Part shown: piece by piece, positions 8,453-60,846 of the stretch
Layout: every line of letters starts with the position of its first letter
Position numbering within the stretch: the stretch's first letter is position 1
Source: Candidatus Hydrothermarchaeales archaeon
Lineage (GTDB): Archaea > Hydrothermarchaeota > Hydrothermarchaeia > Hydrothermarchaeales > JAZGAD01
Direction of reading: 5' to 3'
Length of the DNA: 64,000 bases
Assembly: GCA_036444275.1 (NCBI GenBank)
Contig: JAZGAD010000014.1
Span: 8,131-72,130, forward strand
Translations under genes and position numbers: made by a program
The notes under the pieces: generated by a model
The model's database searches: none
What the model was told of the DNA's origin: nothing
The model's input: the letters and a program-made list of their open reading frames with translations, nothing else

Positions 8453-8480
8453 CTCCCAGCCTTCTCTATTGAATTGACCC

Positions 8481-15398: not shown

Positions 15399-15656
15399 AT
15401 GGCTGAAGTGGTAAGTGTTTCAAGCAAAGGGCAGATAGTAATCCCAAAAGAGATAAGGGACGCGATGGGAATAGTGAAGGGTGAGAAATTCGCTGTAATA
15501 AGCGATAGAGATGCAATACTTCTGAAGAGGCTCAAAGATAGCGACTTAAAGAAGAGGATGTATAAGCTACTAGACTATTTCTCAGACAAATTCGGAGAAG
15601 CAGGCATAACAAAAAGCGACATTGAGAAAGAGATTGCAGAAGCACGGCGACGCTAA
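15399..15656 (+). CDS. vapB: AbrB/SpoVT-type antitoxin
   Basis: VSSKGQIVIPKEIRDAMGI swapped-hairpin motif. Its stop overlaps the start of the PIN gene. Confidence 0.8.
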   Translation: MAEVVSVSSKGQIVIPKEIRDAMGIVKGEKFAVISDRDAILLKRLKDSDLKKRMYKLLDYFSDKFGEAGITKSDIEKEIAEARRR

Positions 15657-16063
15657 TGCTTAGAGTTGTTTTGGATACAAACGTTTTGATATCTGCTATT
15701 GGTTGGAGGGGACATCCCAGAAAGGTGCTCGCTCTCTGTATAGACGGAAAATTAACCCTCATGCAAACACAAGAAATGTTGAAAGAGTTCGAAAGAGTTT
15801 TGCAAAGGGCGAGATTCACTTTTATACATGCAGAGAAGAAGCAAGAATTATTGCGATATTTAATAGACATTTCAATTAAGGTAACGCCAAAGGAAAACGT
15901 AGAAGTAATCAAGGAAGACCCCGACGATAACAAATTCTTGGATTGTGCTGTAGCCGGAAAAGCAGATTACATAGTTTCTGGTGATCGGCATTTGTTGAAG
16001 TTGAAGGAACACAAAGGCATTAAAATTGTAACCGCCTCTGGATTACTTAAGGTTCTAATCTGA
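15656..16063 (+). CDS. vapC: PIN-domain toxin (VapC-like)
   Basis: VVLDTNVLISAI...DDNKFLDCAVAGKADYIVSGDRHLL carries the conserved acidic residues of PIN nucleases. Confidence 0.8.
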   Translation: MLRVVLDTNVLISAIGWRGHPRKVLALCIDGKLTLMQTQEMLKEFERVLQRARFTFIHAEKKQELLRYLIDISIKVTPKENVEVIKEDPDDNKFLDCAVAGKADYIVSGDRHLLKLKEHKGIKIVTASGLLKVLI

Positions 16064-16953: not shown

Positions 16954-17193
16954 ATGTGGGGGGCAAGAAGCATGCAATTATCCCGAGTCGATAAACGCAT
17001 CATAAGCGTTCTAGTAGAAAAGAAGCCCAAGTCCCGTTCTACCTATCAAATCGCCAAGAAGGCCGGGATTTCTTGGTCTACTGCTATAGCGCACTGCTAC
17101 AAGCTCAAGGCAGATGGAATAATCGATGGAGAGACAGAGAAACCGAAATTTGGAAGCAGAGACACAATAGTTTGGAGGAAGAAGAAGGAATAG
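16954..17193 (+). CDS. Small winged-helix-turn-helix DNA-binding protein
   Basis: RIISVLVEKKPKSRSTYQIAKKAGISWSTAIAHCYKLKADGIIDG follows the wHTH layout seen in MarR/ArsR/TrmB-like small regulators. The start could instead be ATG 16972. It ends 30 nt before the giant ORF. Confidence 0.6.
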   Translation: MWGARSMQLSRVDKRIISVLVEKKPKSRSTYQIAKKAGISWSTAIAHCYKLKADGIIDGETEKPKFGSRDTIVWRKKKE

Positions 17194-17222: not shown

Positions 17223-20200
17223 ATGAAGTTTAAACCTCCCAGTAGGATATTGGCAGCATGGATATTACCATTTATACTAGCTTTAGCTATCTTTAGTTCT
17301 TTATTACAACCTTCTAGTAGTATTACTATACTAAACCCTAATGCTCATCCAAAGCTAGGGGACAACTGGAGCATCCACTTTTCTACCACAGGCTCTGGTA
17401 TTCTGGAGATCTACGACCACTCCTTCCCAGAGGAAGTCGAGTTCATCGGCTTGTACGCCGAGATAGACGATGAGTACAAGAAGGTCCAGGTGAGCATCAA
17501 AGGAGACTTGATAACTGCTAACTGGCACTACTCCTCTGGTGAAGCGATCTTCAAGGTTCTAACACCTCAGGAGCATTCTCTCGAGTTCAGGTTTGGAGAG
17601 CAGGTGGTCTATGCATACAACTTCGCTGACCTGCTTATCAACCTGACTGCTCCGTCTCAAGTCGCCAGGGGGCAGGTTATTGAGATTGGCGGTGAGGCAA
17701 GGAATCACGACTTGGCAGATGTCTCCTTGATCTATGTCTTGCCACAGGGCTTCGAGGTTGTTTCAGGCGAGAAGGTGAAGCACTGTGGAACCGGTTATCT
17801 TTGCGAGAGCAGTTTGGTTGTGGATACCTCTAAGGCAAAGCTTGGAGAAGGCGTAATAAAGCTCCAGGGATGTGCCTACGGCGTATGTGAGAGCGAGAGC
17901 ATTAACATCTTTGTGGATCGGGTGCTGACTGAGAAGGGGGAGCCTGTGCAGGAAGAGGTAGAGGTAGGCAAGCCTGTGCGCTGGAGGCAGCACATCCAGG
18001 TTAGGAATCCCCTGCATGCTCCTGTTTTCAATTATTCTCTGCCCCTGCCAGAGGATGCGTCTGGTATTGCTGCGCCGGTTATTGAGGAAGTTAAGCCTGG
18101 ACAGAAACTAGGCTTCGACGTGATATTCTACACCGGGCCAGTGGAAGTAGAAGAAGAAGATCGTAACATTTCCCTGCGTTCTCTGATTCCAAAGAATGCC
18201 TTGAACATAAAGATAGATGGGAAGGTAGCTGACGCGGGCGCTCTAGATATTGAAATACCTGCTAAATTGGTTCGAGTGAAACATAATGCTTCGTTGCACT
18301 ACCGCGATATACCTGTAAGCATAGGCGTTTCAACGAAAGAGGTGACAGTATTCTATGATGCCAATGCCGGGGTGCTGGATGTTAACTCTGGTCAGCTAGA
18401 AGTTGTGGAGGGCGAGGTTTTGGGAGATCAGCTGACTTGGGTTGTGCCCAAGCTCTCTGAGAAGAGGTATTGGATAGCGCAGGTTCAAAGGACTCAAGGT
18501 AAGGCAGAAGTGAATAAGACTGTTGGTTGGACTCTGAAAGCCGGCGGTACAGTTGTCGAGTACGAGACGCCTGCGCCTGTTATGGAGGAGATACCGGTAG
18601 AGAATGGCACCCAGATGAGGGTTAAGAGCGATGTAAAGTACTCCAATGTAACTGCAACGGCTAGTGTTCCAGAGGGAAAGAATCGCACGTTACGCGTAAA
18701 TGGGAAAGGGGAGTTTAAGTTTGCAGATGTGCCGAGCTTTGAGGTTGAGGCTACTGAAACGGGCCATGCTCTCTATTGGCTCAATGGAAGTGTAGAGCTC
18801 TTCAACGAGAGCAGGGATGTAACTAGCGATTCCGCGCATTCAGTTAGCTTCTTTGACGCTAACGGCAATGGCGTAAATGACAGCGTAACTTGGAACATAC
18901 CCACCCTTTTGGAGCAAAATTACCTATTACAAGAGACAGCAAAGGTAGCGGAGATTCGAGCACGAGTCGAGGATGCCAAGGGCTATAGATTGCCGGTTGC
19001 TCCTGAGATCAGGCTTGTCGACGGGAAGTATAAAGTAACGATCCCGCAGGGCAGGGGGGTAAAGCCTGGGTTATACAAGCTCGTCGTTGAATCGGAGGCT
19101 GGTGTAGAGGAGCTGTGGTTTAAGTGGGGACTGATATCGATAAACACCAAGAAGAGTATGTATCATCCTGGCGAAGAAGCTGAGATACTAATGGTTGTAC
19201 TGGACAAGGAGGGCCATCTCGTCTCTAACGCGGACGTCTCTTTTGTAGTTACTAATCCGATTGGTGTGCCTACGTTCTTCACGACGGACGATGGTTCGAT
19301 CGTTGAAACTCAAAGGGGAATATACGAAGCAAGCTATCTAACTTTTCTGGAAAGCAATTATTCGCTCTTTGCCACTGCTAGTGCAGATGGGGTGGCAAGC
19401 ACTATCAATTCATATTTCACAGTCAAGGAGTACTACGAGTTCGATATCCTAAGGGATACACCAGTGACCATTGATCCTCAAAGAGGACCCTTTGATTCCT
19501 CTATAAAGGTGGTTTCATATACCGATGCATCTACTTTCACCCTGAGGGAATACTTACCGGCAGAATTTTCGATAGTTGATGCGGGCGGAGCTAAAGTTAC
19601 TGTCGTCAACGACACGAAAGTATTGGAATGGAGCGATATTACCAATGGTTCAAAGGTTAGCTACAAGTTCAACACTCCTTACATCTGGCCTTACCTCTAC
19701 ATGATGGGACCGGCGGAAGTGGAGTATGCTTCTGGCACGTTTATAGAGGCAAGGCCGTGGATGCTGGCGGTTGATCCCTCAACTTGTGAAGGTAATACGT
19801 GCTATGAATGGTTTGAGGATACGCCGGGATATAGTGCTTCTGATGGTAGTACAGAAACTTATGAATGGACACCTCAGTCGTGTCCTGGGACATTAAACTG
19901 TTATATCCAAAATATCACGGTTAAGTTTAGGTTTACGAATCCATTTTCAGCGATCCGAACTGGGTTCGAAATCTATTTTAGCAACATGTCTGGGGGAACA
20001 ACGTATTATTACCCAGCATATCATGGGGCACTAAGTGCAGGAGGCCAAGTTGGTCCACAGTGGGCGTGTAACTATACTGACAGTGCACAACCCTCAGGGT
20101 ATTTAAATAACACCTGCAACTTAGCGCCGAGTGACGGATTTAACAAAACTACCCATAATGTAACTCTTGTTGCGCCGGGTAAAACCTTAACAGATGTATT

Positions 20201-44200: not shown

Positions 44201-47200
44201 CATGTGGGATCCTGACTTATTGGCGCAACAGGATACCGGGGAGGACCTCCTCATCAATGCTACAGCCTACAAGGACTACTACGACACGAATTCCGGCTAC
44301 CTTTTTATAAATATAACCGGCACAGCCAACGTCTCCTGGGTCTCGCCAACACAGGGACAACAATATCCAAATCCCTTCAACCTTACCTGCAACGTCACAG
44401 ACAGTGTCTCAGGAGCAATCATCTCTGGATACAATGTTTCCTTCTGGTACAAATATCCAAATGAAAACTTCACCTACAATGGTACCATACCCACAGATTC
44501 CGAAGGAAATGCCACCTATATATGGACGCCTCCAAAACCAGGGGAACCCTATATGACCTTTATGTGCAATATAAGCGACTACACCGAGGAGAACTACAAG
44601 GCCTCCGACGACAAGAACTCCTCCTCCATGAACATTCCGGTAACAGATATGACGCCGCCCTTCTTCGACACCTTCCTAGTCACGCCCAACGAGAGCATAG
44701 AGGCATGGGAGACGATAAACATAACGGTGAATGTTACAGACGACAAGGGGATAAATGTAGTCTATGTCCAGATCGGGGAATACAATGGCACCCTTCAGAA
44801 CTACACAATGAATAACCTCACACCAGTTGAGCCAGACGAGCCAGCTATATACTTCTACAACTATACGCCCGAGTGGGGCGGAGACTACAACGCCACGATA
44901 TACGCCGAGGACACGTCTGCGAGGAACAACGGCAACTGGTCGCATACTGAGTACTTCACTATATGGGGCAAGGCAGATGGAGTTACAGATAATACACCTC
45001 CACCTCCATCCCAAGTGGCACTCTATAACATATACTACGACCGCGGGCAGACCTTCAATTTGACCATAAACTTCACAAACAATGGTGATGGCACAGCATA
45101 TGCTGTCAACCTCACGATCTACGATAACCAGCCTACTTTAGTCATCAACTATACACCTAACTATAAGTATCCTAACTATATGCAGCTGTATGACGTAAAT
45201 GCAGGCGTTACGAACCTAACGGAGGTTAATGTCACGATACCAGCTGCAACTACAGCAAGAACTATTTATATCTATGGAAACGTGACCTGGAGAAATCCTG
45301 ATAAGACAATTAACTCGAGCATAGCGCAGACAGTCGTGCTGGTATATGAGAACCCGGTGCTAAACGTTACCGACGACTCCTATCAGCCAGAGTTGCAACT
45401 GGAAGACGTCCGCCATGGAGATAAGAAGGAGGGCACAGTAATAGTGCAGTCCATCGGGAACGCGAACATCAGGAATATCAACATATCAAGGGACGATGGA
45501 GCGCTGGACAACCTCGGTACCGATTGTCCGTACTGCAATGTAACCTTCAACGACGATACTGTATACAGCATCCCCAGCCTACCCTTAGGCGTAACCTCTA
45601 CGGTTACAGTAGTCGTGGATGTGCCTTTCGGTCAGGCTCCAATGTCGTACACAAGCCACATAAAAACAATATCAGAGAATGCAGCGGCAAAGACCATTCT
45701 TATGAATGTTACTGTGGCAGGGAATGCAACGTGGTATGCTGAAACGTCGTATGCCGACCCCAGTACACTCGGCAATATAACCGCCTTCCACCCCAATCAA
45801 AGCGGGTACACCAAAGGCACTATGGGCAAGATCACTCTTACAAATATAGGCAACGTGAGGATATCCTATGCGATTACAGTCCCGCATAAAAACACCGAGA
45901 TGAATGGAACCACGATAGAGGTTAATGGCCAGTATCCACCGGATCCAGTCTCGATCCCTGAGCCCTACCTACAGCCTGCTGGAACGAAGCGTACGCTGGA
46001 GATAAACTACACCATCCCAACTACTGCCGATAGAGGGCTGTACTGCAAGAATATAATGATAGATGTAACTAAGGCAGAGCCCGTAAAGGTTGAAGACGCG
46101 AAGCCGTTTTCACTCAATATTCCCTTCTGCCTTGAGGTAACTGACCCGAAGTACAACTGGAGCCATTCCAAGACAAACATCTCCATGGAGGTCATACAGG
46201 GCACAGACGGCTTCCTCGGCACCTTGAACATAACCAACCTCGGGAATGTCGAATTTTACTTGGAGGTGAACAAATCCGTCGAGATCATAGCTGTCTCCAA
46301 TCTCACCCTAGGCCTAGGTGTTAACAAGACCCAAGAGGTATCCTTGAACTACTCAGCTCCAGTAACTCATGAGCTAAAGAACTATACGTATTACTTCAAG
46401 ACCGTGAATGCATCAGGAGAGCCAACTGAGAGGATAACGTACATCAACCTAACGGTCCAGCCCTACTTCATAAACATAACCCAACCCACAAAAGACGCTC
46501 AGAAGAAGGGCGTGTTCGGTGGCGATGAGATTCTTATCAGGGTGAACGTGACCTATAATGGTACAGCGGTAAACGACACGGGCGATATGAACTGGATTGT
46601 AACGCTGTTCAACAGCACCTACTCGAAGGACTATACTCCATCTGCTCCGCTTGATGAAGTTTACGACAATGTAACTGAGCAATTCAACCTCACCATACTT
46701 GTCCCCAATATAGCCCAGAGGGCCTATGATTTGAAGGTAACAGCCACTTACTCACCAAAGAACCTTGTGCTCGCTGATGTCGAGAATGATGCCATAGTCT
46801 ATAATGATACTATCGACCCAGTGCTTAACCTGGTGGTGCCAGGAGAGGTAACCGTGGGACAGTCCGTGGAAATCCTCCTGAACGTGACAGACGCTGGATC
46901 GATAAATGAGTCGACGGTAAGCGCGAACATAACGGATCCCAATCAAATCACCTTCGATCTGAACATGAGCTCTATCGACAAACAGGGCGATACTTACCGG
47001 TACAACAACGTATCCATCCCAACCCTGGAGGGCACCTACACCATAGATGTCACGGCCTGCGACGTAAGCGGACGTTGCGCGTCCAACAGCACGTCCTTCA
47101 ACGCCTACATAAAGGTAGACATCAATGGCACTGCTAAGGATTCAACTAGTCAACTCGCGGAGGTCAGCTTCAAATTCTATGACAACGGCACCACTAATCT

Positions 47201-50200
47201 CGCCCCGAATGGTAGCTTCAGCAATAACGTGACTGAAGGATACTCCCGCACCTTCTACGCAAGGTTCTATGACCTTGAGATAAGTGCGTTTGGCCATGTC
47301 ATAAAATTCGAGAACCTGAATGTGAGTGACCACTTGAACGATCCAATACGCCTCGACGAGTTCAAGGAGGGCGATATCTCAGAGAACAACTTGAATCTAC
47401 CTCTCGGAAGAAGGCTTCTGAAAGGCATTGGGGTTAAGACCAACTTTACGAATCTGACTACGGAGAAGGTGACTTTGATCCTCAACTACTCCGGTACAGT
47501 GCCAAATGATGAGGACTCGATAAAGATATACAGGTGCCCTGGCTCAAGCTGGACCTTCGAGCCAGATAGCGCGAGGGGATGCACAAACTGGGAGGAACTC
47601 GGAGGTACCCCATACAAGCCGGCGCAGACCATACAATTTGAGGTTGAAAACTTCTCAGCCTACGCTATCACCGAGGAAAAGCCAACAGTGCCTCAGATAA
47701 CTCTTACCGCTCCAACGGGCGGCGAGACATGGGCCGACAATCAGAGCATTACCTATACCTACTATGATCCAAACGGCAACAACCTGGATGTCTACATATG
47801 GTATAGCAACGACTCCGGTGCGACATGGAACTATATATATAATAAGACTTACACCGACACTGGTACTCAGAAGACAGGTTCCTATTCTTGGGATACTACA
47901 AGCAGACCAGATGGAAGCTACCTGATCAACATCACCGTCACAGATACAGATGGAATGACGAATGAAGACATCTCTGGAGCTTCCTTCACCATAGACAATA
48001 TCGACGATGATCCACCTACGGTAACCCTCACAAAGGAGCCCTCGGATTCGACGTGTTCCCAAGACCTATTCTTTGAGGGAAAGGCAATCGATGCGAGATC
48101 AAACATCAGCGCAGTAGAATACCGGGTGGACGGCGGCAGTTGGATAAACGCTACTCCAATAGATGGTGCCTTCGATTCCCTAGAAGAAGAGTTCAACTTC
48201 ACCACAGGTACCCTATCCTTCGAGAGCCATGCCATCGAGATCAGGGCTAACGACAGTTCTGGCACATCTGGGTATTCAACACCCCTCTACAAACCCAAAG
48301 AGGTTACGAGGGCCTGCCAGGAGATAAAAATACCCTCCGGCGGAGGTGGCGGTGGAGGTGGCGGTGGAGGCATCTCCCCCACCTGCGGTAACGGCATTTG
48401 CCAGCCAGGTGAGAACAGTGAGAACTGCCCACTGGACTGCGCACCCACAAACGCGACGAACGCATCAGTGATCATGCAGAGGGAGATAGAGCGCCTACGT
48501 GAACAGCTCGAAGAGATCAGGCAGACGATAAGTGATACCGCGAATGAAACCGCTGAGAGGGTAAGGACGATGCCTACGATTTCTCCCTTCACGATACAGA
48601 CGAATCTCGCTGAGGTAGAGCTTCATCCAGGAGAAGAGAAGTGGTATTCCATCTGGATAAGCAACCACTTGAGCAGGGACCAGAAGGCAAGGCTCTCAGC
48701 CATGGGCGTTGGAGCGCAGTTCATCGAGATGTACGTAGATAGTGTCAAACTCTTCACCGAGGCGACTGTCACCCTAAAGCCGGAGAGCACGCAGCACATA
48801 AAGGTCAGGGTCTATTCCCTGCCGACAACGATACCAAGCATATACACTGCCGATATCCTTCTGAGGGTAAACGGCCAGAACCATACCATACCTGTGACCA
48901 TAACTATAACGCCTGAGAGAGAAGCCCTGCTCGATGTCAAGGTAGAGGCGCTGACCAAGAGGCTCACTCCAGGGAAGCTCATCAAATATCACGTCTCGCT
49001 TTACAATCTCGGCTTCAAGAAGAAGTTCGATGTGCACATGGTATACAAGATAAAGGACGTCGAAACAGAGAAACTCATCGACTGGTACGAAGAGGAGCTA
49101 GCCCTAGAGACGACGCTCTCCTTCGTGAAAACATATCCAATGGAGAACCTCACCCTCTCAATCGGCAGTTACTTCATTGAGATAGAGGCGATATACGAGA
49201 AAAATAGGACCGCTTCTGCAGCTGATATATTCGAGATAGTGCAGCCGTTCTGGAATAGAACGAGGAGGCTGGGTGTTCTAGCTCTCATCCTGCTCATTAC
49301 TGCCAGCGCAGCTGGATATAGAGCTAGAAAATGGTACTTAGCCCAGAAACTCGCGAAGGCCAGATACCTGTTCCCAGTCGCGGAGGATAAGCTCCCCAAG
49401 GGCGAGCTCTGGCTCGGCAAGATAGCTGAGACAGACATCAAGGCAACCTTCGATATGGACGACCTCATGGTGCACTGTATCACTGCTGGTGCAACCGGCT
49501 CTGGAAAGAGCGTCTCGGCCATGGTAATAGTTGAGGAGGTATTGAAGCAGAATATACCGGTAATAGTCTTCGATCCAACCGCGCAGTGGACAGGCTTCGT
49601 TAGGCCGTGTAGAGCAGAAAAGATGCTTGCTTTCTATCCCAACTTTGGGTTGAAGGAGACTGACGCTAGGCCCTTCAAGGGTATGATCTTCGAAGTGACT
49701 GATCCCTTCGAGATGGCTGATATAGACTACCGCAAGTACATGAATCCAGGCGAGGTAACAATATTCGCCTTGGACAAGCTCGAGCCGCAGGAGTTCGACA
49801 AGGCGGTAAAGAACATCATTGACGCGCTTTTCAAGATATCCTGGGAGGAGTCGCCTCACCTCAAGGTCCTTATAGTGATGGACGAGGTCCATAGGCTGCT
49901 TGAGAAATACCTGTCGATGGGCGGCATAGTCTCGGAACTGGAGGGCTATAAGTCCATCGAAAAGGCATGCAGAGAGTTCAGGAAGTGGGGTATAGGAATA
50001 ATCATGGCCTCCCAGATATTGTCTGATTTCAAGGAGACACTTAGAGGAAACGTCATGACTGAGATACAGCTCTTTACAAAGGCAGAGGAGGACCGGCAGA
50101 GGGTAGCTGACAAGTACGGCGCAGAGTACGCCCAGAGGATAACCAAACAGGAGGTGGGCGTTGCACTCGTGCAGAATCCGAAGTACAACGATGGTAAGCC

Positions 50201-50459
50201 CTACTTCGTCAACTTCAGGCCTTTGTTGCATTCGCCCCACAAGATCCCTGAAGCGGAGCTCGAGACATACAAGAAATATGATGCGAGGTTACGAAAATGC
50301 GAGCTAATAATAGATGATATGAAAGCGAAAGGGATAGATACTTTCGACCTCGACCTCGAACTCAAGCTCGCGAATGACAAGCTCAAGCAGGGTGCGTTTA
50401 GGATGGCCGAGATCTACGTGGAGTCATTGGAGGGCAACGTGGAAAGGCAGATGAGGTAA
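17223..50459 (+). CDS. Giant (11,078 aa) membrane-anchored surface protein with C-terminal cytoplasmic HerA/FtsK-like ATPase domain
   Basis: Single uninterrupted ORF of 33,234 nt plus TAA. N-terminal hydrophobic signal/anchor ILAAWILPFILALAIFSSLL. About 23 kb of repeated beta-sandwich-like modules saturated with N-x-S/T. CARDB-like domains, poly-Gly, Cys-knot and one TM helix. Walker A GATGSGKS and Walker B VLIVMDEVH in the last ~380 aa. Confidence 0.9.
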   Translation: MKFKPPSRILAAWILPFILALAIFSSLLQPSSSITILNPNAHPKLGDNWSIHFSTTGSGILEIYDHSFPEEVEFIGLYAEIDDEYKKVQVSIKGDLITANWHYSSGEAIFKVLTPQEHSLEFRFGEQVVYAYNFADLLINLTAPSQVARGQVIEIGGEARNHDLADVSLIYVLPQGFEVVSGEKVKHCGTGYLCESSLVVDTSKAKLGEGVIKLQGCAYGVCESESINIFVDRVLTEKGEPVQEEVEVGKPVRWRQHIQVRNPLHAPVFNYSLPLPEDASGIAAPVIEEVKPGQKLGFDVIFYTGPVEVEEEDRNISLRSLIPKNALNIKIDGKVADAGALDIEIPAKLVRVKHNASLHYRDIPVSIGVSTKEVTVFYDANAGVLDVNSGQLEVVEGEVLGDQLTWVVPKLSEKRYWIAQVQRTQGKAEVNKTVGWTLKAGGTVVEYETPAPVMEEIPVENGTQMRVKSDVKYSNVTATASVPEGKNRTLRVNGKGEFKFADVPSFEVEATETGHALYWLNGSVELFNESRDVTSDSAHSVSFFDANGNGVNDSVTWNIPTLLEQNYLLQETAKVAEIRARVEDAKGYRLPVAPEIRLVDGKYKVTIPQGRGVKPGLYKLVVESEAGVEELWFKWGLISINTKKSMYHPGEEAEILMVVLDKEGHLVSNADVSFVVTNPIGVPTFFTTDDGSIVETQRGIYEASYLTFLESNYSLFATASADGVASTINSYFTVKEYYEFDILRDTPVTIDPQRGPFDSSIKVVSYTDASTFTLREYLPAEFSIVDAGGAKVTVVNDTKVLEWSDITNGSKVSYKFNTPYIWPYLYMMGPAEVEYASGTFIEARPWMLAVDPSTCEGNTCYEWFEDTPGYSASDGSTETYEWTPQSCPGTLNCYIQNITVKFRFTNPFSAIRTGFEIYFSNMSGGTTYYYPAYHGALSAGGQVGPQWACNYTDSAQPSGYLNNTCNLAPSDGFNKTTHNVTLVAPGKTLTDVLNIKYKWVWTPAMPQLSDVTVTPSSAGWGALRNFSAFYTDPQGDAGNVTLFAKTSTSGSFTSKNLTAITNGTTASIFYRFDITDFEALGVGWEYRLNASDNNTPPNSYLTSSYTFTVTKDATTFQNTEGDGAVINRSDSLPNNTVPLWSYIYDMENESLARANSAAGKIEGRIWINKNASAGYVGTDAHSAETDSDGKFKGTTELFNASGYFNPGCTYTTGQHVWYAETLAHTNYTQNDTLAINSGNNYTLYIWGTLSNSITSPDPPGKEYTVGENVPLYGTVYDDCSVLVTDANVTFRVYNATLGVDDNLTASYNPPQNRYEASWNSTGNSTGIYQVEMISNKSYHPVDTAQTNFTLVELITLNWTVVQGNGSISNRTGEEINTLVVRITDDATNPVTNENATLWITYDGTNSIQKITNESNSSGYLVYDFNATCDLDVGEQEWKLVMQDTTEFQNPNSWDDGNEYYTDIWGTTTLDFAYPIAGIYDMGGLIRHEGYVYDDCGSELDGATVNFTIVGPSTSPSPYYCENVEAPLAGLYKCNSTAGEGWDSSGMDEGWYNSTINVSKSYHYNNSVIKTNGTQSLFNLRLTPPDLFDADVQPRKDGWGKNYTFAVNITYAAGKNVSVLLYYQPQLMEEELLASTGNFTLPSYTYAVNFTDQTFNSTLVDKTVKFRYEIKYYPPGLGEQSVWTTITETGDYNQSNTTGVDDNEFYLEKDDVLLNYSAGNESTASLQVEATFVLRIWDITRGVWINATSTSVKFNVTKNWPSSENVTVNTTTTNATGYAFTDFLPDTSYSSGLQKWFGYIPDTDPYYKFNVSDIFDVNLSIHPPQLVNASVDKTTAGWGVNRTFSVEVTDTVDNATVSLWKTDTSGFVADTNWTFIAAKNYTDVGNWTQLNFTTSFSPSDIGGWYYKFNASDIAGNTNYTSESSYTFTVDKDDVILEYVQGDDSPANRSDNQIDRLIVKVKDENGSYIGNLSVTFKVTFDGSIYDTGTANNTNTSGYAIYNFNPGCSSPKYGVGVQNWTAVSSETNAYKSNSSSIYNLTIWGDNVITFDRPAPYPTGYYAVGDRVPFRVLIKDECGDELGKNEDSDKEVKFYAIGPDTSPQTYDCGTVSSSLTGLYECESAAGGWNTTGKSAGDYNATADVSLAYYYINNSINNRIVPERDNLTLASGSGWFRLYVPSQPPDLTAADVNPRKDGWGKNRTFSVNVTSPKSGKNITVVLEVKKSGEDYAQIGDAQNWTSGGTGSSKILEWNVSFYPANVSVLPYKFKFTATDEDLEEDVTNIPAEYTNTTPLEGIDENEFKIEKDDVLLNYTAGNGSLVNLQVEATFVLRIWDITRGVWVNTTSASVKFNVTKNWPSSENVTVNTTATNATGHAFTDFLPDTSYSSGLQKWFGYISDTDPYYKFNVSDIFDVNLSIHPPQLVNASVDKETAGWGVNRTFSIEVRDTVDNATLSLWRSSQIVGQPWYLIAEKNYTDVGNWVQLNFTTSFSPSLIDTWYYKFNASDIAGNTNSTDVVSTRNFTIDKDDVILEYVQGDDSTANRSGNQIDPLIVKVRDENGSYVGNLSVTFKVTYDGSNYDSGTPKDTNGSGYAIYNFDPVCTPTKYQVGVQNWTAEVLETNAYKSNSSSIYNLTVRAEFNNTITKPPGNENYTLGDTLTFQAVIRDDCNDNLDGVTANFYASNATVEYDCGNVTLILSGTGIYECTWASGLAEEGWYNVTLNTTLGNYHYYSDTTKYDQPGLFYLLFKEQPPDLNSANVTPRKDGWSLNRTFTVNVTSPKNGKNVTVWLELKKGGGSYNPEGDEQNWTSGGPGSFSILEWNISFSSTDVDLWFFKFQAKDADGVTDTTSLTESGDYVNDTNEFNVEKDDVNISYIYGNETEIATLSNPSTFILKICDEDANTCNLTPSAKVKFNVTKDGIGTDYYAARGTDGNDYNYTNGTGHVVFEFLPDTSWNSTKQSWIGYVVDDYYNFTTSGTYNVTVDLNKNPDILNETVNGVTEDAKQGWGFVFNFSVMVKDDKNTNTTVELWVDTANTTGSTYKKVNETLCESCGSDWKEINLTVRFNSSDIGPASYYFKAIDNTSNPNQTTSHAFTIEEDEVTFEVSPGSNGTNVIVNRSAAQGNLRLAVRLRDENTSYVGANASTTLYVTTSGSTFDSGRDIDTNASGYVNYDFLPTCSNPEYEVGLHNWYVKVKDSDSLYQPNQSEYYVFRVIGTLSNTITEPLGSPTYNQWQTILLEGNVYNYCGEGIEINNTLAGENLTFTLINGTNNYTCTDIVKSGVNTYKCYWAPFASNAIRGWYNLNMFSNKSGYYANETTRLNSFYLQTPPKLEDAKVDPTDEGWGYTFNFSVNVTDNIDDNVTVTFYDKRSGDESWTLVSEQNWTADGTTGRLYWNKSYASTYAGETMYFKFDADDTEGFDDTIGGVGESWEFKLRKDDVELLYIQGNESVVDRLGAQTTRFILYANDTDRAAQAYPPAATVYFNVTKDWENYTAATNLTGQNYNYTNASGYVTLDFNATCEQNVGKQKWIGYILNDDAYKDNVSAEFNVTVVGDLINNITQPDGEEYNQTDPVPLRGRVTDECGNSILGINDTVTFTVSNGTANYLCTPVEDQGNGYYNCTFDTNLSMAPGWYNITMNSSAGDNYNNATLTKQAFRLTPGNVEPYLSDAQVTPASEGWGITRNFSVEVMDLNSDDVNVILFLSPDGTNWVEIGNDTCPGCSNWQTLTFPYSFSRENYSTNNTWQFRFNASDGNVTVTLSNTTGAILERDNVSVVLDQGDGAIVNRSGDQTVSPILRLQVVDNDNSSITVAADVTGRFYVTVDNSSWGSAINKNTTTGGNLSLDFNPNCTSPKYYTGVQQWRGETNGDFYYDDNSSINYTLYIYGELIATIDQPNGTQTYAPGQNVTMEFNVVDECGDNVTGMTPQNFTVNLTHSNYSDLCTNIQVVGNGSYNCTWNSSGAVGGNYTIAIDLGKDYYNSNSTTRQDAFSINVAPTLENVGVDPTSNYWGTTFTFNVTVTDEDDTVTLKLWHRCISSLGTSDSCDSIRDWTQVDTTETCPDCTAELRQFTNTTGDTSVGIWEWFINATDQDGNEVNTTPENYTVTKRGVIISYNNKGNNSWVNRSDNNVTVLEVRMRDAENPTGWLTSSDGNGFYRVTTNGSNWGPNMTGAQLDSQGRLKGPGGADFEFDPTCTSPTYQTGEQKWSAVFNGTKKYYYNESANYTLYIRDYLINNITYPDGEPFDKNTYMDLNGTVVDSCGGVDNSTANVVFGFIRNLTGASVPPSCGAPTNPSGGNYTCNESLANDNFGYYHVWMNTTVNDYPYHPNITLYREFVFKVAATPELKDPVVAPTLQGWGYNFAFNVSYRDNEDLSGENNNISLYKAYNQSGPWYLIETKNEDYWTTTFKNITYYSTFNKSDLDNATAADGVIYFFFNATDTNSFTDNTTVKNFTIERDNVTVVATSGEGENVTRLGSGTILLQVQINDNDTAGQPAVAGANGSIFIIGVNKTTNITDASGYLSYNLNPGCSPLYPAGLNYWTGGIDGDAYYFDRNSSPNSNFTVIGQLYNNLTEPLQPTYNVTENITIKFYVTTDCSGEGNQTVSGRTITLIHNQSGANSSCGTINYNPADATYNCTWDPTGKPEGNYTIIINTSNQSFNSVSATWTNRFELINQPPVVDAVNLTVDPDEGGWGATYLYKVFVEDPEGDDVTCTLYVNTTGSWVEKGSNTTTGGVGNCSVTVDGFNKSDYDYNVTQANPISFMFEINDTGSNEPFNTSDTVGQVYQPALQEDNIQIIHIQGNNSEVNRSGVQATTFILLVNDLDKGTYLSNPNVTVKFNITTDGSNYQLDGSNFTNSTGYAIYNFDPNGTYDVGVQNWTAFVEGDTYYANNASAVFNVTIYGIFETLDAGPFNFSSNTFDKTYPRGENVTIRGNVTDDNSTLVSGATVNFTLVRNGVYYGCMPPIANGEGNGSYNCTFETGGKPAGWYNLSMNVTKGDFYYENTTIFEEFLFVETSPVLTNPQLNTSKNGDNIGGWGEKFNFSVVVTDEDGDTVYAVLWTRRNASYSWTEIENKSCTNCNNTVVYHEETGAYSCNKFDDSDLGTWEFKWNATDVASYPSTGDGDVYTNETVNESYTVEKDNVSVTLVSGNNETVWRNGSDSETLTVLVYDIDKEENPTTQAKGAIWVTTTTFNGSLEGTSYVSVFNDYANPSGQLTKNFDPSCSYEVGWQHWIGGTYGSECYMDANSTQGPFNLTMKSYLEGVVQNVNQTPPYYEVSEKINITFYVNDDCEGTYGGMGGADVIKLNLSSGGWSNEYTTGFIDYGNGTYVYEWDSAVGVYGWYNTSLELNQSYYYNKTGGDDNVTFDREELFYLDTRPLLQTAAVNQTDNGWGETWKFTVECKDSDGDPANLTLWKRLQDSPASEWEYVDSQTCSNTGFELKTFIETFNYTDITPAGNVTNYKFNISDPYDYGSELIGPEDITVEPDDIGYTTVVGDEEGVDRLGNDTVRLAILVVDQDRGNTPVLEGTGMTFNITSDYVTYDTIYPATVNSTGWMNLDFNATCTHLAGQQKWIGDEADYRYKGIPFGAFDVFVTGQLYTDLITPPDGQPYNVSDPVPTNLSVFTDCAPEGNVTGATVTIGFSPNETSWENFTATDGGDGYYNVTWDSTGNIEANWSIIANASLSNYTDNVTKWSSRFELINQPPVVDAVNLTVDPEEEGWGATYIYTVFVDDPEGDDVTCTLYVNTTGSWVEKGSNTTTGGVGNCSVTVSGFNKSDYDYNLSNPISFMFEINDTGSGEPFNTSDKVGAIYAPSFQEDNVSITYYGGDNGTTITRKLQSATFIFNTTDTDSGGVAYNASGAVWVTKTGSSDWDSGTSDTTNASGYLIVEIAPGCDYDTGVRNVMGGINDTYYEDVNTTESLMITLTGGMSLQAWSQNESDDQDQTIYRDDNLTIKANITDECGAQVDGVNVTFTLSNGSQNFTCSVNNESNGIYNCTIETNSTMSAGWYNMTLNSTKQNFAPNTTLFKNFLFIETEPVLTGAVVNSSQNGDNTGGWGETFTFNVTASDEDGDNMTVCLYLSKNGESFWQEYCNSTVNGINQLVSRDRIFPDDSWMGNWEFKWNVTDDGDDPITGDTKYNDTTLNISFIVERDDLSILEEDGDEATVSRLGDNKTLLNVSIRDIDKLENVSGFQDLLTKAYVTLDNYTWDWGKTKSVSGDYRYIEFNPNCSYSVGEQKWKFVTGDITEYKPTESDNYTLYITSILVPNLTEPQGGIYIKDSQDVIINATVEDYDTDCDPVDDSTVNFTFTNLDGTKYYAETTTPTVTSLGEGNYTYNLTAARNDGMKYGWYNVTVHANRSYYSNDEVVNYTVYKAFKLTSIPKFDPEDIVFTVPSGSGYYWGEPWTISVNIRDYDNDNVNVTLYKRKVGETSWDYLNDSLCDNDCQNTKTISFVQNFSCADRGDIEWNVTLTDLNNFTVSTTENQSINKDLSYVTHEFGGGETVNRTGLNKLPMIVRVADKTRGYVLVGSGVNGSFYITNGTDNVWAERYTNQTNTSSRLTLFFDPTENYTLGNQYWDGGVEGDNCYTNKNISTGNQTFNIKGQLLINMEQPTTNVTPVIVNDNVTIRFNVTTDAAWEGYQNETTSVDVQLSRDGSSVACTYGPYNEGNGSYNCTWVTVTLDGGMWNMTITVSKSPNYNTNVTLFENWFNLSNTKPNATDINVTPSTGGWGRNFTYRVFVNDSQQANVTCALYTNTTGDFVYKGNDTVAGGLGNCTINVTFSPDDITPSAEFYFVIDDGTEGNKFNTSTQTGPIIERDNITIAFVYNSTDEVNRSGTNSITFIFFVNDTDRQEGAYTPNATVGLYVTTDGENYSLANTSYTNSSGYVTFVFDPDDTYNAGVQDWKANVTGDYAYKDASTGVFNVRIWGDLGYQFEQPLGERIMRGQNVTVRLNVTDERATPVLISNASVEILLTSNRTGDDFTCQVENETSPAGIYNCTFLTNSSVPTGAYNITLTAKKSYYNNISTDIEYVFGVSSFFLETKPALESPTVVSRMANGSIGDGGWGEDWTFSVNVTDIDLDNVTVKLWLNLTGTWSDEGTAYVVGENQTVSFTFNDTDNVITSSHIGNRSFKFNITDSRFANETDIVNFTVYRDDVGFAVVSGNGSANRSSRPSFLLRVQMWDADTGDPVGTFRNARFYYTKDGNTSNYYTYSTNTGPGGEYAENTLDLSSIVKSCAYTIGPQYWFVDYNYDLASDSELKETNSTLYNWTLITDPLVVSIVSPVDEESRLKGVDSVNLTGRVTDDCVSELGGVENATVVFKIVGLSTTDTFTDVTNGSDGWYNYTINDTSGYQYGKYNVTMNVSKQYYNSTVEVEVDAFALASVPEVSGLDAEDDPSVNSYATESSWGEVWVFSATVKDADYGNGNVTLWVNNSGSWIPQNSTLRSFTSAGIGVSFKEYSLFTGDDVGVQYFKFNATDNYNYTDEKMANVTVNPDDLYIDYVSGGGDTVNREGSGTVRFIVTAYDKDRIMYLGAGRNGSFWVTTTGVVSGPRDSGTVNYTNGSGYLILDFDPDSNVHGVGTQYLDGGIYGDSWYVDRNLSQDDVTNYPVTIVGQLKVNLEQPYDPSGQYEAIVTDNITIRFNVSTDNTSMGPASDLQADATTSVEIIDFDGNVLPSACSSAGEGNGWYNCTWDTSIGGLLEGNYSIRINSSFTPNYNPNSTTYINLTRLINTEPNGTIANTTLNVTPPAGGWGENFTFTVNVSDTQGDNVTCILFVTTDNGTTWMTKGEKLITDTKPENKKICEINTTFTSDDITYSNNATFKFQLNDSTEGNIYNTTNGSGPVIEPDNVTVSYVFGGLRVNRTSDGSSSVPLILRIYDNDTEGYVPQGVNGTIWITVNGSDYDPGNSNLTNDSGYLIYNFTPSCSNYDLGVQYWIGGATDPAYERKNTTQNFTFEIQGVLETAITAPTGQPRYLKGSQNATLKGTVKECSADPNVDDANVTFKLTAKLTNQTYQCTGTLLSTGTYKCDLDFAAMDAGWYDVKMNSSKAYNYNDSVTSTDVFFVVSKPELSDANVTNRTGGWGERFTFTVNLTDEDEDNVTVGLYLNKDESWELKNSTSVIGNGSNQTVTLTYAGFTLSDMGVWEFYLNATDNSTCSPFCPNTVTTPVDNFTVEEDDVRFEVVAGDGEMVWRNGSASATRTLEVQVFDDDRNVSIDGPKLNFWITVNGTDWRLEQGGEGGDSNGYVDINFKPTCANGYQVGIQDWKVETTGTTLDYYKAVNSTNYSIKVQGELNLSILIPKYPSSYLAGTSVPLSGKVIDDCGADMDNTSTSVTYTFKRGGSEYSNSTTIYVGNGTYNSSWDNPPTVYGYYNLTMTVSKSYYGINSTKELNATFISSKPWLDDDTADLDFESGGDGGWGEDFTFSVQVFDNDLNEVNVSLWKRQQLEDGNWSNWSLIDSAMKNDTQWTYFTTSFTSSDMGLNSWKFIAVDTWNYTNETTVKNFTILPNDIEIKQYAEPGAVGRLLSPQTLGVKFKDSDRNEYTNGINGTIYITEKGYDTDHNWTYECVSENVGIFNGVCAVEYPPNCTSTIGIQNWIVELTDPRYKTPINYTKNITVKGQLNTTILTPSEDNTSVNRNTSVVLKVNVSDECKNTIDTAQVSWKNETEDEIAINDTKDGINGTYIATWNISGTYKLGPETIYATASSVDNYYDANFDTNYSDNIGVLVYGWSYIKTMSPANGTEVRAGNNQQVTCTVYDNSTGQSISDYNVSFYVDGVYRNSTTTVGATATWTWYVNTSHGNKNVSCDITDDSELYYNITSPNENSTIIKVDRPLLIDSISVSPDSIWRNDSFWPTKPIETTITVHVWDADLGNAVNATVWFNISDEINNISWSQTNSTGYANITYNPPYNLTPGMHPIRINATPANESLIAASATNLTEVQVRGVLNVNITAPPDPLLEFSFKKSETIWLNATVTSENGDVVNATVKWFNVSTVNIGLNDTNETMWDPDLLAQQDTGEDLLINATAYKDYYDTNSGYLFINITGTANVSWVSPTQGQQYPNPFNLTCNVTDSVSGAIISGYNVSFWYKYPNENFTYNGTIPTDSEGNATYIWTPPKPGEPYMTFMCNISDYTEENYKASDDKNSSSMNIPVTDMTPPFFDTFLVTPNESIEAWETINITVNVTDDKGINVVYVQIGEYNGTLQNYTMNNLTPVEPDEPAIYFYNYTPEWGGDYNATIYAEDTSARNNGNWSHTEYFTIWGKADGVTDNTPPPPSQVALYNIYYDRGQTFNLTINFTNNGDGTAYAVNLTIYDNQPTLVINYTPNYKYPNYMQLYDVNAGVTNLTEVNVTIPAATTARTIYIYGNVTWRNPDKTINSSIAQTVVLVYENPVLNVTDDSYQPELQLEDVRHGDKKEGTVIVQSIGNANIRNINISRDDGALDNLGTDCPYCNVTFNDDTVYSIPSLPLGVTSTVTVVVDVPFGQAPMSYTSHIKTISENAAAKTILMNVTVAGNATWYAETSYADPSTLGNITAFHPNQSGYTKGTMGKITLTNIGNVRISYAITVPHKNTEMNGTTIEVNGQYPPDPVSIPEPYLQPAGTKRTLEINYTIPTTADRGLYCKNIMIDVTKAEPVKVEDAKPFSLNIPFCLEVTDPKYNWSHSKTNISMEVIQGTDGFLGTLNITNLGNVEFYLEVNKSVEIIAVSNLTLGLGVNKTQEVSLNYSAPVTHELKNYTYYFKTVNASGEPTERITYINLTVQPYFINITQPTKDAQKKGVFGGDEILIRVNVTYNGTAVNDTGDMNWIVTLFNSTYSKDYTPSAPLDEVYDNVTEQFNLTILVPNIAQRAYDLKVTATYSPKNLVLADVENDAIVYNDTIDPVLNLVVPGEVTVGQSVEILLNVTDAGSINESTVSANITDPNQITFDLNMSSIDKQGDTYRYNNVSIPTLEGTYTIDVTACDVSGRCASNSTSFNAYIKVDINGTAKDSTSQLAEVSFKFYDNGTTNLAPNGSFSNNVTEGYSRTFYARFYDLEISAFGHVIKFENLNVSDHLNDPIRLDEFKEGDISENNLNLPLGRRLLKGIGVKTNFTNLTTEKVTLILNYSGTVPNDEDSIKIYRCPGSSWTFEPDSARGCTNWEELGGTPYKPAQTIQFEVENFSAYAITEEKPTVPQITLTAPTGGETWADNQSITYTYYDPNGNNLDVYIWYSNDSGATWNYIYNKTYTDTGTQKTGSYSWDTTSRPDGSYLINITVTDTDGMTNEDISGASFTIDNIDDDPPTVTLTKEPSDSTCSQDLFFEGKAIDARSNISAVEYRVDGGSWINATPIDGAFDSLEEEFNFTTGTLSFESHAIEIRANDSSGTSGYSTPLYKPKEVTRACQEIKIPSGGGGGGGGGGGISPTCGNGICQPGENSENCPLDCAPTNATNASVIMQREIERLREQLEEIRQTISDTANETAERVRTMPTISPFTIQTNLAEVELHPGEEKWYSIWISNHLSRDQKARLSAMGVGAQFIEMYVDSVKLFTEATVTLKPESTQHIKVRVYSLPTTIPSIYTADILLRVNGQNHTIPVTITITPEREALLDVKVEALTKRLTPGKLIKYHVSLYNLGFKKKFDVHMVYKIKDVETEKLIDWYEEELALETTLSFVKTYPMENLTLSIGSYFIEIEAIYEKNRTASAADIFEIVQPFWNRTRRLGVLALILLITASAAGYRARKWYLAQKLAKARYLFPVAEDKLPKGELWLGKIAETDIKATFDMDDLMVHCITAGATGSGKSVSAMVIVEEVLKQNIPVIVFDPTAQWTGFVRPCRAEKMLAFYPNFGLKETDARPFKGMIFEVTDPFEMADIDYRKYMNPGEVTIFALDKLEPQEFDKAVKNIIDALFKISWEESPHLKVLIVMDEVHRLLEKYLSMGGIVSELEGYKSIEKACREFRKWGIGIIMASQILSDFKETLRGNVMTEIQLFTKAEEDRQRVADKYGAEYAQRITKQEVGVALVQNPKYNDGKPYFVNFRPLLHSPHKIPEAELETYKKYDARLRKCELIIDDMKAKGIDTFDLDLELKLANDKLKQGAFRMAEIYVESLEGNVERQMR
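22341..23340 (+). repeat. Copy 1 of a ~1-kb near-identical intragenic duplication (offset 1,782 bp)
   Basis: gagaaggatgatgttctcctgaatta at 22341 matches 24123. The ~140-aa core LQVEATFVLRIWDITRGVW...AGWGVNRTFS..DTVDNAT.SLW differs at ~11 residues by my count. The antisense ORFs 22146..22685 and 24000..24467 begin with the same 33 residues. Confidence 0.9.
24123..25116 (+). repeat. Copy 2 of the ~1-kb near-identical intragenic duplication
   Basis: See copy 1. The offset shrinks from 1,782 to 1,776 bp at the distal end through in-frame indels. Confidence 0.9.
31200..31580 (+). repeat. Copy 1 of a ~380-bp near-identical segment (offset 3,081 bp)
   Basis: RFELINQPPVVDAVNLTVDPDEGGWGATYLYKVFVEDPEGDDVTCTLYVNTTGSWVEKGSNTTTGGVGNCSVTVDGFNKSDYDYN... 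recurs at 34281 with few substitutions and one 9-nt indel. Confidence 0.9.
34281..34652 (+). repeat. Copy 2 of the ~380-bp near-identical segment
   Basis: RFELINQPPVVDAVNLTVDPEEEGWGATYIYTVFVDDPEGDDVTCTLYVNTTGSWVEKGSNTTTGGVGNCSVTVSGFNKSDYDYN... Confidence 0.9.
48339..48440 (+). other. Poly-Gly run (33 nt) followed by Cys-knot motif CGNGICQPGENSENCPLDC
   Basis: ggc gga ggt ggc ggt gga ggt ggc ggt gga ggc at 48339-48371. Four Cys fall within 19 aa at 48384-48440. Confidence 0.9.
49270..49320 (+). other. Single C-terminal transmembrane helix of the giant protein
   Basis: RRLGVLALILLITASAAGYRARKWY: a hydrophobic 17-18 aa stretch flanked by basic residues. It is the only strong hydrophobic helix after the N-terminal one. 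Confidence 0.75.
49321..50456 (+). other. Cytoplasmic HerA/FtsK-clade (DUF87-like) P-loop ATPase domain
   Basis: HCITAGATGSGKSVSAMVIVEEVLKQNIPVIVFDPTAQW (Walker A at 49488-49511). LKVLIVMDEVHRLL (Walker B, ~49866-49898). ACREFRKWGIGIIMASQILSDF resembles the EGRK.G.G..L.SQRPS segment of HerA-like ATPases. Confidence 0.7.
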
Positions 50460-60834: not shown

Positions 60835-60846
60835 CTTGTTCCTGAC

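Follow-up and report, generated by a model that had tools for sequence, protein, structure and literature searches.

The stretch analysed here (the window) comprises 64,000 nucleotides of a contig from a Candidatus Hydrothermarchaeales archaeon (JAZGAD010000014.1, assembly GCA_036444275.1). It carries one very long open reading frame (ORF), the giant gene, which encodes a predicted surface protein of the SPEARE family: a long extracytoplasmic part, a single transmembrane (TM) helix and a cytoplasmic P-loop ATPase of the HerA type. The gene and its parts are given below with window coordinates, strand and residue numbers in amino acids (aa); AF2 denotes an AlphaFold model, pLDDT its predicted local distance difference test score, and Ig immunoglobulin.

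17223..50459, + strand: giant gene, SPEARE-type surface protein; 11,078 aa, ~1,225 kDa, isoelectric point 4.3
17223..17312, + strand: signal peptide or anchor (aa 1-30); hydrophobic core at aa 6-25 in a Kyte-Doolittle scan
17313..20192, + strand: distal tip (aa 31-990), non-repetitive and lineage-specific; no self-matches, one weak Pfam MG2 match
20193..43022, + strand: repeat region (aa 991-8,600), ~22 super-repeats of ~335 aa; from self-comparison, AF2 model and Foldseek
43023..48338, + strand: non-repetitive Ig-like domains (aa 8,601-10,372, ~1,770 aa); Pfam Big_7, Big_1, NPCBM_assoc (CARDB-like) and DUF4625
48339..48440, + strand: poly-Gly linker (aa 10,373-10,383) and 4-Cys motif CGNGICQPGENSENCPLDC (aa 10,388-10,406), from the sequence
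48459..48566, + strand: extracellular long helix of 36 residues (aa 10,413-10,448); AF2 model, helix 30-65
48588..49238, + strand: two juxtamembrane beta-sandwich domains (aa 10,456-10,672); AF2 model, conserved in the family alignment
49263..49331, + strand: single TM helix (aa 10,681-10,703); hydrophobicity, AF2 helix 296-329, sequons end here
49395..50237, + strand: predicted cytoplasmic HerA-clade P-loop ATPase (aa 10,725-11,005); Pfam, PDB searches, Foldseek, PADLOC and alignment
49488-49511, + strand: Walker A, GATGSGKS (aa 10,756)
49866-49892, + strand: Walker B, VLIVMDEVH (aa 10,882)
49971-49991, + strand: REFRKWG motif
50250..50456, + strand: C-terminal helical hairpin or coiled coil (aa 11,010-11,078); AF2 helices 627-694, pLDDT above 90, conserved in the family

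The giant ORF begins with ATG, and an in-frame stop 9 nt upstream fixes its N-terminus. Across 17223..50459, stops number 672 and 673 in the remaining forward frames, and the giant frame has none in 11,078 codons; at the stop-triplet frequency of the window, a stop-free run of this length has a chance probability of ~10^-217. Codon usage was scored as a log-likelihood ratio in consecutive 600-nt intervals, with 13 housekeeping genes from the window as the training set; frame 0 was favoured in 55 of 55 intervals (means of +0.25 and, for the other frames, -0.34), so the ORF is coding over its whole length with the codon usage of the host. The gene caller of the source collection (NCBI record GCA_044240385.1 / JAZHCD010312760.1, a 112.8-kb contig) gave the identical 11,078-residue product. 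The original prediction, made by reading this DNA without database searches, of a single uninterrupted 33.2-kb ORF is thus borne out.

The source is a metagenome contig and the gene is repetitive, which raises the alternative of an assembly artefact or dead gene, in which a chimeric join, or the collapse or expansion of repeats, mimics one ORF. Within the gene, exact nucleotide repeats extend to 97 nt at most (at 22621 and 24403, a spacing of 1,782 nt). This longest one lies in the youngest duplication of the gene (22320-25073), where segments 1,776-1,782 nt apart share 81-88% nucleotide identity, the best over 300 nt anywhere in the gene. The remaining repeats are mostly only 60-77% identical in nucleotides, and on these grounds we reject assembly collapse as the main explanation. 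The uniform coding signal and zero stops argue against an artefact as well. So do the colinear match between the C-terminal 4,170 aa and an orthologue from a separate assembly (in Candidatus Hydrothermarchaeum profundi JdFR-18, below), the independent recovery of homologues of the tip, and the presence of genes of the same architecture in closed genomes. We regard an artefact as extremely improbable and the assembly risk as small: the one plausible error of short-read assembly is a wrong number of 1,782-nt units, which would stay in frame.

The N-terminus of the protein has a basic stretch followed by a hydrophobic one, as in a Sec-type signal, and is followed by ~10,650 extracytoplasmic residues that form roughly 95 beta-sandwich domains. 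The distal tip has just two partial homologues among 5.8 billion proteins, one of them from Hydrothermarchaeaceae, and Pfam and NCBIfam searches of aa 1-950 gave no useful assignment beyond the weak MG2 match. Internal repeats are absent from aa 1-900 and aa 8,700-11,078 and are present, in diverged form, across aa 900-8,600. Each 335-aa super-repeat consists of three macroglobulin (MG)/Ig-like beta-sandwich domains and carries a conserved GWG motif. Amino acid identity between copies spans 25-86%; most copies share 25-45%, and two younger duplications (aa 1,700-2,600; aa 4,600-4,900 with 5,600-5,900) reach 72-86%. An AF2 model of one repeat unit, for which the other units served as the alignment, has three beta-sandwich domains (pLDDT 84). 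The Ig-like region that follows (aa 8,601-10,372) is colinear with the JdFR-18 orthologue, and the Pfam domains found across the whole ectodomain are Big_7, Big_1, NPCBM_assoc and MG2.

The best Foldseek matches of the repeat unit are the MG domains of complement C5/C3, the alpha-2-macroglobulin (A2M) family and CD109, together with the Marinomonas adhesin MpIBP (5irb). The likeness to the MG arrays of alpha-2-macroglobulin and complement C3/C5 lies at the level of the beta-sandwich fold only, and no thioester, bait or CUB domains were detected in the giant protein. Closer in overall design are the bacterial adhesins MpIBP (1.5 MDa), Salmonella SiiE and a 7,651-aa Mobiluncus protein, which like the giant protein are megadalton strings of tandem Ig-like domains with a distal tip. 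They are, however, exported by type I secretion or anchored by sortase, have no cytoplasmic ATPase domain and share no sequence homology with the giant protein.

N-X-S/T sequons are strongly enriched in the giant protein (655, with ~185 expected from composition), and all of them lie N-terminal to the TM helix. Per 100 aa the ectodomain has 6.15 sequons and the housekeeping proteins of the window have 0.4; the 375-aa cytoplasmic tail has none. This distribution fixes the topology, with the ectodomain outside and the ATPase inside, and predicts that the ectodomain is heavily N-glycosylated. With ~4 nm per domain, ~95 domains would give an extended ectodomain several hundred nm long. The arrangement proposed originally agrees with these results: a signal or anchor at the N-terminus, ~1,000 non-repetitive residues, ~7,700 aa of modules and distinct Ig/CARDB-like domains (~1,770 aa, not the ~1,500 stated), outside a membrane with the ATPase inside. 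Profile searches and structure prediction on the modules, among the checks suggested there, gave beta-sandwich Pfam families and three sandwiches per repeat unit. The adhesin-like reading made at the time stands, and the ectodomain is dominated by Ig-like repeats of the adhesion type.

The poly-Gly run (11 residues) and 4-Cys motif mark the junction of the variable fibre with a conserved base module. This junction recurs in homologues, and in minimal paralogues that lack a long ectodomain the 4-Cys motif follows immediately after the signal peptide. The AF2 model of the C-terminal part (a monomer; pLDDT 88 overall) places two beta-sandwich domains between the long extracellular helix and the membrane, for which Foldseek returned RbmA and transglutaminase tandem beta-sandwiches. 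Only ~20 residues separate the TM helix from the ATPase core, with just a short beta-hairpin before the P-loop. The poly-Gly linker, the long helix, the single TM helix and the cytoplasmic P-loop ATPase (Walker A and B intact) had all been read correctly from the translation. The supposed Cys-knot proved to be a 4-Cys mini-motif of modest model confidence, and the order of domains between helix and TM helix was right except that the two sandwiches had been missed.

Every search placed the ATPase nearest to HerA. It matched Pfam DUF87/HerA with 38.7 bits (cut-off 23.2). HerA ranked first in a single-sequence search of the PDB, and in a PDB profile search the top seven matches were all HerA (E 1.5e-11 to 1e-5), with FtsK at 0.04, DotL at 0.08 and VirB4 absent. 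The best Foldseek match was Sulfolobus HerA (4d2i, E 3e-13) with anti-phage HerA next, and PADLOC returned only HerA models and mad8. The Walker A, Walker B, REFRKWG and SQ columns (every catalytic motif, SQ included, is intact in the giant protein) are invariant across the 51 divergent sequences of the family alignment. On this sequence and model evidence we assign the ATPase to the HerA clade of the FtsK-HerA superfamily. It shares the RecA-like core, Walker A/B, R-E-x-R-K-x-G and SQ with HerA of Sulfolobus solfataricus (PDB 4D2I), a hexameric DNA translocase, and with the bacterial anti-phage HerA proteins of SIR2-HerA and HerA-DUF4297. It differs from them in having a TM helix ahead of the core in place of a HAS-barrel N-domain, in being fused to an extracellular protein, in having no NurA, SIR2 or nuclease partner nearby, and in scoring only 30 and 14.5 bits with the NCBIfam HerA equivalog models, far under their cut-offs of 800 and 970. 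Since it lacks the HAS barrel and a NurA partner, it is not an orthologue of repair HerA.

Other identities were considered and rejected. Assignment to a restriction enzyme or to VirB4/TraG is contradicted by Pfam, NCBIfam, PADLOC, the PDB sequence and profile searches and Foldseek, which all point to HerA; Pfam and NCBIfam gave no protease, nuclease or VirB4-specific domain, only a sub-threshold ResIII helicase-type match on the P-loop. The best NCBIfam match is the DNA-translocating ATPase of the Ced import system (NF053655, CedD), yet at 45 bits it falls far under the equivalog cut-off of 600. An anti-phage defence system was set aside because PADLOC yielded only generic HerA/mad8 and coiled-coil (LmuB/JetC) matches, with no defence partner genes.

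FtsK/SpoIIIE, Streptomyces TraB, VirD4/TrwB, the type VII proteins EccC/EssC and archaeal Ced combine an N-terminal membrane anchor with a cytoplasmic P-loop ring motor that moves DNA or protein through a membrane, and they supply the working analogy for how the giant protein might act. The giant protein has only one TM helix and weak, sub-threshold similarity to these, and none of them carries a giant ectodomain. VirB4 and VirD4 are themselves members of the FtsK-HerA superfamily, which lends some plausibility to the proposal of Reva et al. (2023; PMC10266531) that SPEARE proteins are a type IV secretion-like 'straw', with a VirB4/TraG-type ATPase injecting effectors through a channel formed by the giant protein. 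Cytoplasmic bridges reported in one nanohaloarchaeal co-culture (PMC11001535) would fit such a device, as would the weak Pfam matches to FtsK_SpoIIIE and TrwB_AAD_bind, both below threshold (18.2 bits for the latter, cut-off 20.5). However, HerA came first in sequence, profile and structure searches, with VirB4 never among their matches; the NCBIfam match to VirB4 (VirB4_plasma) reached 17 bits against a cut-off of 590; and the window holds neither a CagE_TrbE_VirB domain nor any other type IV secretion system (T4SS) component. The ectodomain, moreover, is a string of solid beta-sandwiches with no obvious conduit, and the host is biosynthetically competent and without a known partner. We consider the straw quite unlikely.

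The C-terminal 695 aa have more than 140 homologues with 36-55% identity in Aenigmarchaeota, Woesearchaeota, Nanohaloarchaeota, Pacearchaeota, Nanopusillaceae and Hydrothermarchaeaceae, annotated merely as DUF87, DUF853 or HerA-like. One such gene sits after an 8,880-aa gene in Candidatus Nanohalovita haloferacivicina, and another after a 15,808-aa gene in a Woesearchaeota metagenome-assembled genome. The tail of the giant protein aligns with that of BNXNv_0298 (8,880 aa) at 39% identity over 628 aa (E 6e-139) and with the 15,808-aa Woesearchaeota protein at 41% over 704 aa. Genomes of GTDB species contain the base module at no fewer than 485 loci, mostly on ORFs of 2,000 to more than 4,000 aa. 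Among proteins clustered at 50% identity, 354 clusters match it with E<=1e-30. Among the best 150 of the 354 clusters, the ATPase is always C-terminal and proteins reach 7,878 aa. Where the full 10-kb upstream flank was available (42 loci), the ORF runs off the flank at 25 (>~3,900 aa) and measures 1,090-3,591 aa at the other 17. Minimal versions of 620-700 aa consist of a signal peptide and the base module alone. The conserved unit is thus the ~700-aa base module, to which ectodomains of very different length (250 to more than 15,000 aa) are attached as variable grafts at the poly-Gly/Cys junction.

Hamm et al. (2019; PMC6642349) introduced the SPEARE proteins as a class of great length that lies mostly outside the cytoplasm, with a TM segment close to the C-terminus and a conserved region inside the cell. 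One was detected by proteomics, similar intracellular regions were noted in Woese-, Aenigm- and Micrarchaeota and in Altiarchaeales, and at least one laminin-G domain was stated for every member's ectodomain. Reva et al. (2023; PMC10266531) described a signal peptide, ~75 Ig-like domains, a TM segment, a 'VirB4/TraG-like' ATPase and a coiled coil, and dispute protease and nuclease domains, also in the founding members. The nanohaloarchaeal proteins span 5,998-9,409 aa (PMC6642349, PMC10266531). Peptides from ectodomain and base module of the nanohaloarchaeal protein are reported to separate by size. The giant protein has the homologous cytoplasmic tail, the single C-terminal TM helix, the Ig-like ectodomain and the terminal coiled coil, and its membership in the family is well supported by sequence. 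With NAR1_1133 (5,998 aa), the protein of Candidatus Nanopetramus SG9 (8,553 aa), SVXNc_0300 (9,409 aa) and BNXNv_0298 it shares the overall architecture: signal peptide, beta-sandwich ectodomain, one TM helix, cytoplasmic ATPase, terminal coiled coil and a coiled-coil gene downstream. It differs from these nanohaloarchaeal proteins in its host (Hydrothermarchaeota, not a DPANN episymbiont), in its greater length and in an ectodomain with no detectable laminin-G, WD40/PQQ propeller or protease-like region and no detectable sequence similarity beyond Ig-like folds. The locus also has no adjacent second, 'minimal' ATPase gene and an extra gene for a 685-aa coiled-coil protein. The view that no described family unites such an ectodomain with an intracellular ATPase is contradicted by these publications and by the 39-41% identity of the tails. 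The protein is indeed large for Archaea, as had been said of its size, but the 15,808-aa Woesearchaeota protein exceeds it. The proposed search of related archaeal genomes for giant ORFs with the same C-terminal ATPase succeeded, for example in JdFR-18 and with BNXNv_0298.

In six DPANN loci (L003, L004, L034, L039, L041 and L050; related loci carry the prefix L) a minimal paralogue of 620-700 aa follows the giant gene. In a crude neighbour-joining tree the ATPases of giant and neighbour group within their lineage and are sisters in L004, L034, L041 and L050. This points to a recent duplication or to concerted evolution, and the two may form mixed rings. Base-module homologues also occur on short contigs binned as Heimdallarchaeota (L014, 3.4 kb), Methanobacteriota (L016, 11.9 kb) and Methanosarcinales (L026, 22.4 kb), which may be mis-binned DPANN contigs.

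The giant gene is flanked on both sides by biosynthetic genes of its 112.8-kb contig. The window also encodes KaiC-like ATPases, an amidohydrolase, HtrA, two tandem PurP (DUF1246/DUF1297) paralogues and two ribonucleotide reductases, and CofC and MTHFR lie on the contig beyond it. The reductase and PurP pairs occupy 43-4244 (+ strand) and 59758-61941 (- strand). The two reductases are different and adjacent: one has a large-subunit barrel and an ATP-cone, the other is of the anaerobic NrdD type with ATP-cones. The two reductases and two PurP paralogues indicate that the host makes its own nucleotides. The best named matches of PurP are Hydrothermarchaeaceae (70-73%), Candidatus Pyrohabitans (65-67%) and Hydrothermarchaeales/-ota (59-63%), followed by Bathyarchaeia (53%). 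In searches of genomes, the base module found its best match on a 1.9-Mb contig of JdFR-18. A longer ORF there is colinear, through its C-terminal 3,948 aa, with aa 6,909-11,078 of the giant protein (40% identity over 3,344 aa and 49% over 824 aa), and orthologues of both coiled-coil genes described below follow it. The colinearity extends into the ectodomain, and we therefore regard the two giants as orthologues. An archaeal host, as originally supposed, is confirmed by the PurP relatives and this orthologue, and the giant gene is a conserved part of the resident genome in a phylum outside DPANN that makes its own nucleotides. In a crude neighbour-joining tree of 89 ATPase domains, which addressed whether the Hydrothermarchaeota copies are monophyletic or came from Aenigmarchaeota and carries no support values, the window sequence sits on a long branch away from JdFR-18. 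The words 'adhesi', 'S-layer' and 'largest' do not appear in the text of the Hydrothermarchaeota genome paper (PMC6775978).

This context bears on the proposal of Hamm et al. (2019; PMC6642349) that the protein is a device for DNA uptake and degradation, whose restriction-type intracellular part digests imported host DNA for nucleotides. The weak ResIII match and the existence of DNA translocases among HerA relatives are compatible with it. Pfam and NCBIfam, however, detected no nuclease domain, in agreement with Reva et al. (PMC10266531), and a need to scavenge is not evident in a window that holds two PurP genes and two ribonucleotide reductases. Uptake for degradation thus appears very unlikely.

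The genes next to the giant, and others that may belong with it, are as follows.

50481..52136, + strand: cytoplasmic coiled-coil partner directly 3' of the giant gene, 551 aa (554 aa from a GTG at 50472)
52147..54204, + strand: another coiled-coil protein of 685 aa, internally duplicated; conserved in Hydrothermarchaeota only
8602..14130, - strand: possible accessory, 1,842-aa secreted MG2/NPCBM_assoc protein; Pfam, homologues near related ATPase genes
51900-52136 (+), 53950-54204 (+) and 8602-8800 (-), also L002:10874-11869: shared tail motif
16954..17193, + strand: 79-aa winged-helix protein, a possible regulator, whose reading frame closes 30 nt ahead of the ATG of the giant gene

The partner gene begins 13-22 nt past the stop of the giant gene, depending on its start; the 551-aa start, three codons after the GTG, is the choice of the source gene caller. 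Its product contains 42% charged residues, no sequons and a Pro/Glu/Lys-rich linker. Homologues lie directly downstream in loci L002-L005 and were found in 74 of 83 related loci. The partner is absent from the published SPEARE descriptions (PMC6642349, PMC10266531) and appears to be new. The 685-aa protein is 34% identical to a 730-aa gene product at the same position in JdFR-18 and otherwise gave only coiled-coil matches of the SMC/Rad50 type; neither it nor the partner matches a known family, the coiled-coil matches (Rad50, SMC, ATG16, DUF1664) all being below cut-off. Its duplication shows in '...TIKATWWQQGKE(L/S)KKMKIELEEKT(G/S)ILSSKE...', which occurs twice, ~185 aa apart.

The 1,842-aa protein is rich in sequons (5.5 per 100 aa) and has a stalk dominated by Pro and Thr, a TM helix towards its C-terminus and a helical tail in the cytoplasm. 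Homologues (30-39% identity over 570-1,320 aa) lie within 10 kb of a SPEARE-type gene in 15 related loci, and it may belong to the same system. A helical motif reminiscent of SHOCT-type tails, 'LLE.L....(I/L)S...YEE....K.E..L', is common to the C-terminal ~55 residues of the 551-, 685- and 1,842-aa proteins. The motif recurs in the JdFR-18 orthologues and in a 331-aa protein of L002, Pfam makes no call on it, and the 551-aa partner has an extra internal copy (ELISKESYEEVKRKNEEML). Judged by sequence, it may be a common docking element. The 79-aa protein matches Pfam HTH_24/HTH_11 below cut-off; its sole homologue in the related loci (L072:14245-14451) lies directly upstream of a gene resembling that of the 1,842-aa protein, weak grounds on which it may be a dedicated regulator of the giant gene. 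In 23 of the 83 related loci a ParA/MinD/CbiA-type ATPase of ~255 aa is encoded near the SPEARE-type gene (for example L002:11871-12608); the window has no such gene.

One alternative is a passive adhesin or matrix fibre, in which the ATPase and its coiled-coil partners would cluster or position the protein, anchor it to a cytoplasmic scaffold or signal its mechanical state inward, with no translocation. The conserved partners are long coiled coils, a positioning ATPase of the ParA/MinD type is encoded in 23 of the 83 related loci, the shared tail motif connects three proteins of the locus, and a single TM helix per protomer speaks against a pore. On the other hand, the catalytic motifs and those of ring-interface type in HerA are strictly conserved in very divergent lineages, which suggests real motor work, and no scaffold protein of a known type is present. 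A non-translocating role in anchoring or positioning is a serious rival, with a minority but real chance of being correct.

We favour the interpretation that the giant gene is an intact chromosomal SPEARE-family gene of a Hydrothermarchaeota archaeon and that its product is a contact fibre on a probably hexameric translocase base, and assign it a probability of about 0.8. By analogy with HerA, FtsK, TraB, VirD4 and EccC, the ATPases would assemble beneath the membrane as a probably hexameric ring, with their TM helices keeping it in place. The ectodomain would project as a glycosylated fibre a few hundred nm long and make contact, through its lineage-specific tip, with a second cell or some surface. 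Hydrolysis of ATP by the basal ring would then drive a polymer across the membrane at the site of contact, or remodel the complex. The polymer would most plausibly be nucleic acid and less plausibly protein, following the HerA/FtsK clade. The coiled-coil partner may dock on the helical hairpin of the ATPase.

Several observations weigh against this interpretation. With each protomer contributing a single TM helix, a ring would contain no more than six, too few to make a good conduit for DNA or protein, and no nuclease (NurA-like), pilin, T4SS or other channel component is encoded in the window. Six 10,000-residue ectodomains per ring may be sterically awkward. The giant locus has no adjacent minimal paralogue, unlike several DPANN loci. 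Laminin_G was not among the Pfam matches in any part of the giant protein, though a divergent copy in the 950-aa tip is possible. The whole proposed mechanism, with its oligomeric state, ATPase activity, substrate and role in contact, is drawn from relatives.

In many DPANN genomes no genes are more conspicuous than the SPEARE-type giants, for which a role in host capture is widely assumed. The two Hydrothermarchaeota genomes encode pathways for purines, deoxynucleotides and cofactors, so the module is not bound to the lifestyle of a nutritionally dependent episymbiont, and the Hydrothermarchaeota orthologue pair weakens readings of the family as a means of nucleotide scavenging or host subjugation. 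Beside the existing descriptions of SPEARE proteins, the HerA-clade motor, the near-universal coiled-coil partner and the organisation as a base module plus graft appear to be new; a Hydrothermarchaeota host, outside DPANN, with its colinear JdFR-18 orthologue also appears to be missing from those descriptions (PMC6642349, PMC10266531). The motor, the partner gene and the ~700-aa base module offer concrete biochemical handles, and the protein itself (~1.2 MDa) is among the few archaeal proteins above 10,000 aa. A bolder extension, which we hold to be unlikely, is that the module of giant ectodomain, HerA-type ATPase and coiled-coil partner serves no DPANN parasitism in particular and is a general and ancient archaeal cell-contact machine, free-living lineages included, in which a ring of HerA-type motors at the base of a glycosylated 0.3-0.4 um fibre moves DNA or another polymer between cells. 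If true, this would be an archaeal conjugation- or uptake-like system not previously recognised and unrelated to Ced or T4SS.

A scan for Rfam families and tRNAs found nothing across the whole window. In JdFR-18 (L005:11887-12702) a 271-aa gene overlaps the stop of the giant gene and encodes a signal peptide, the two juxtamembrane beta-sandwiches and a TM helix, with no ATPase; its sandwiches are 42% identical to aa 10,454-10,688 of the giant protein, and the gene is missing from the window. Three consecutive KaiC-family ATPase genes occupy 5785-8539 (- strand), the product of 5785-6948 fusing a KaiC-like N-domain to a C-terminal Arf/Ras-type GTPase. In the AT-rich gap upstream of the giant gene (15399-16063, + strand), an 85-aa AbrB/MazE antitoxin (MazE_antitoxin, E 1.5e-9) abuts a 135-aa PIN protein (PIN_3, E 7e-26), a probable VapBC-type toxin-antitoxin pair.

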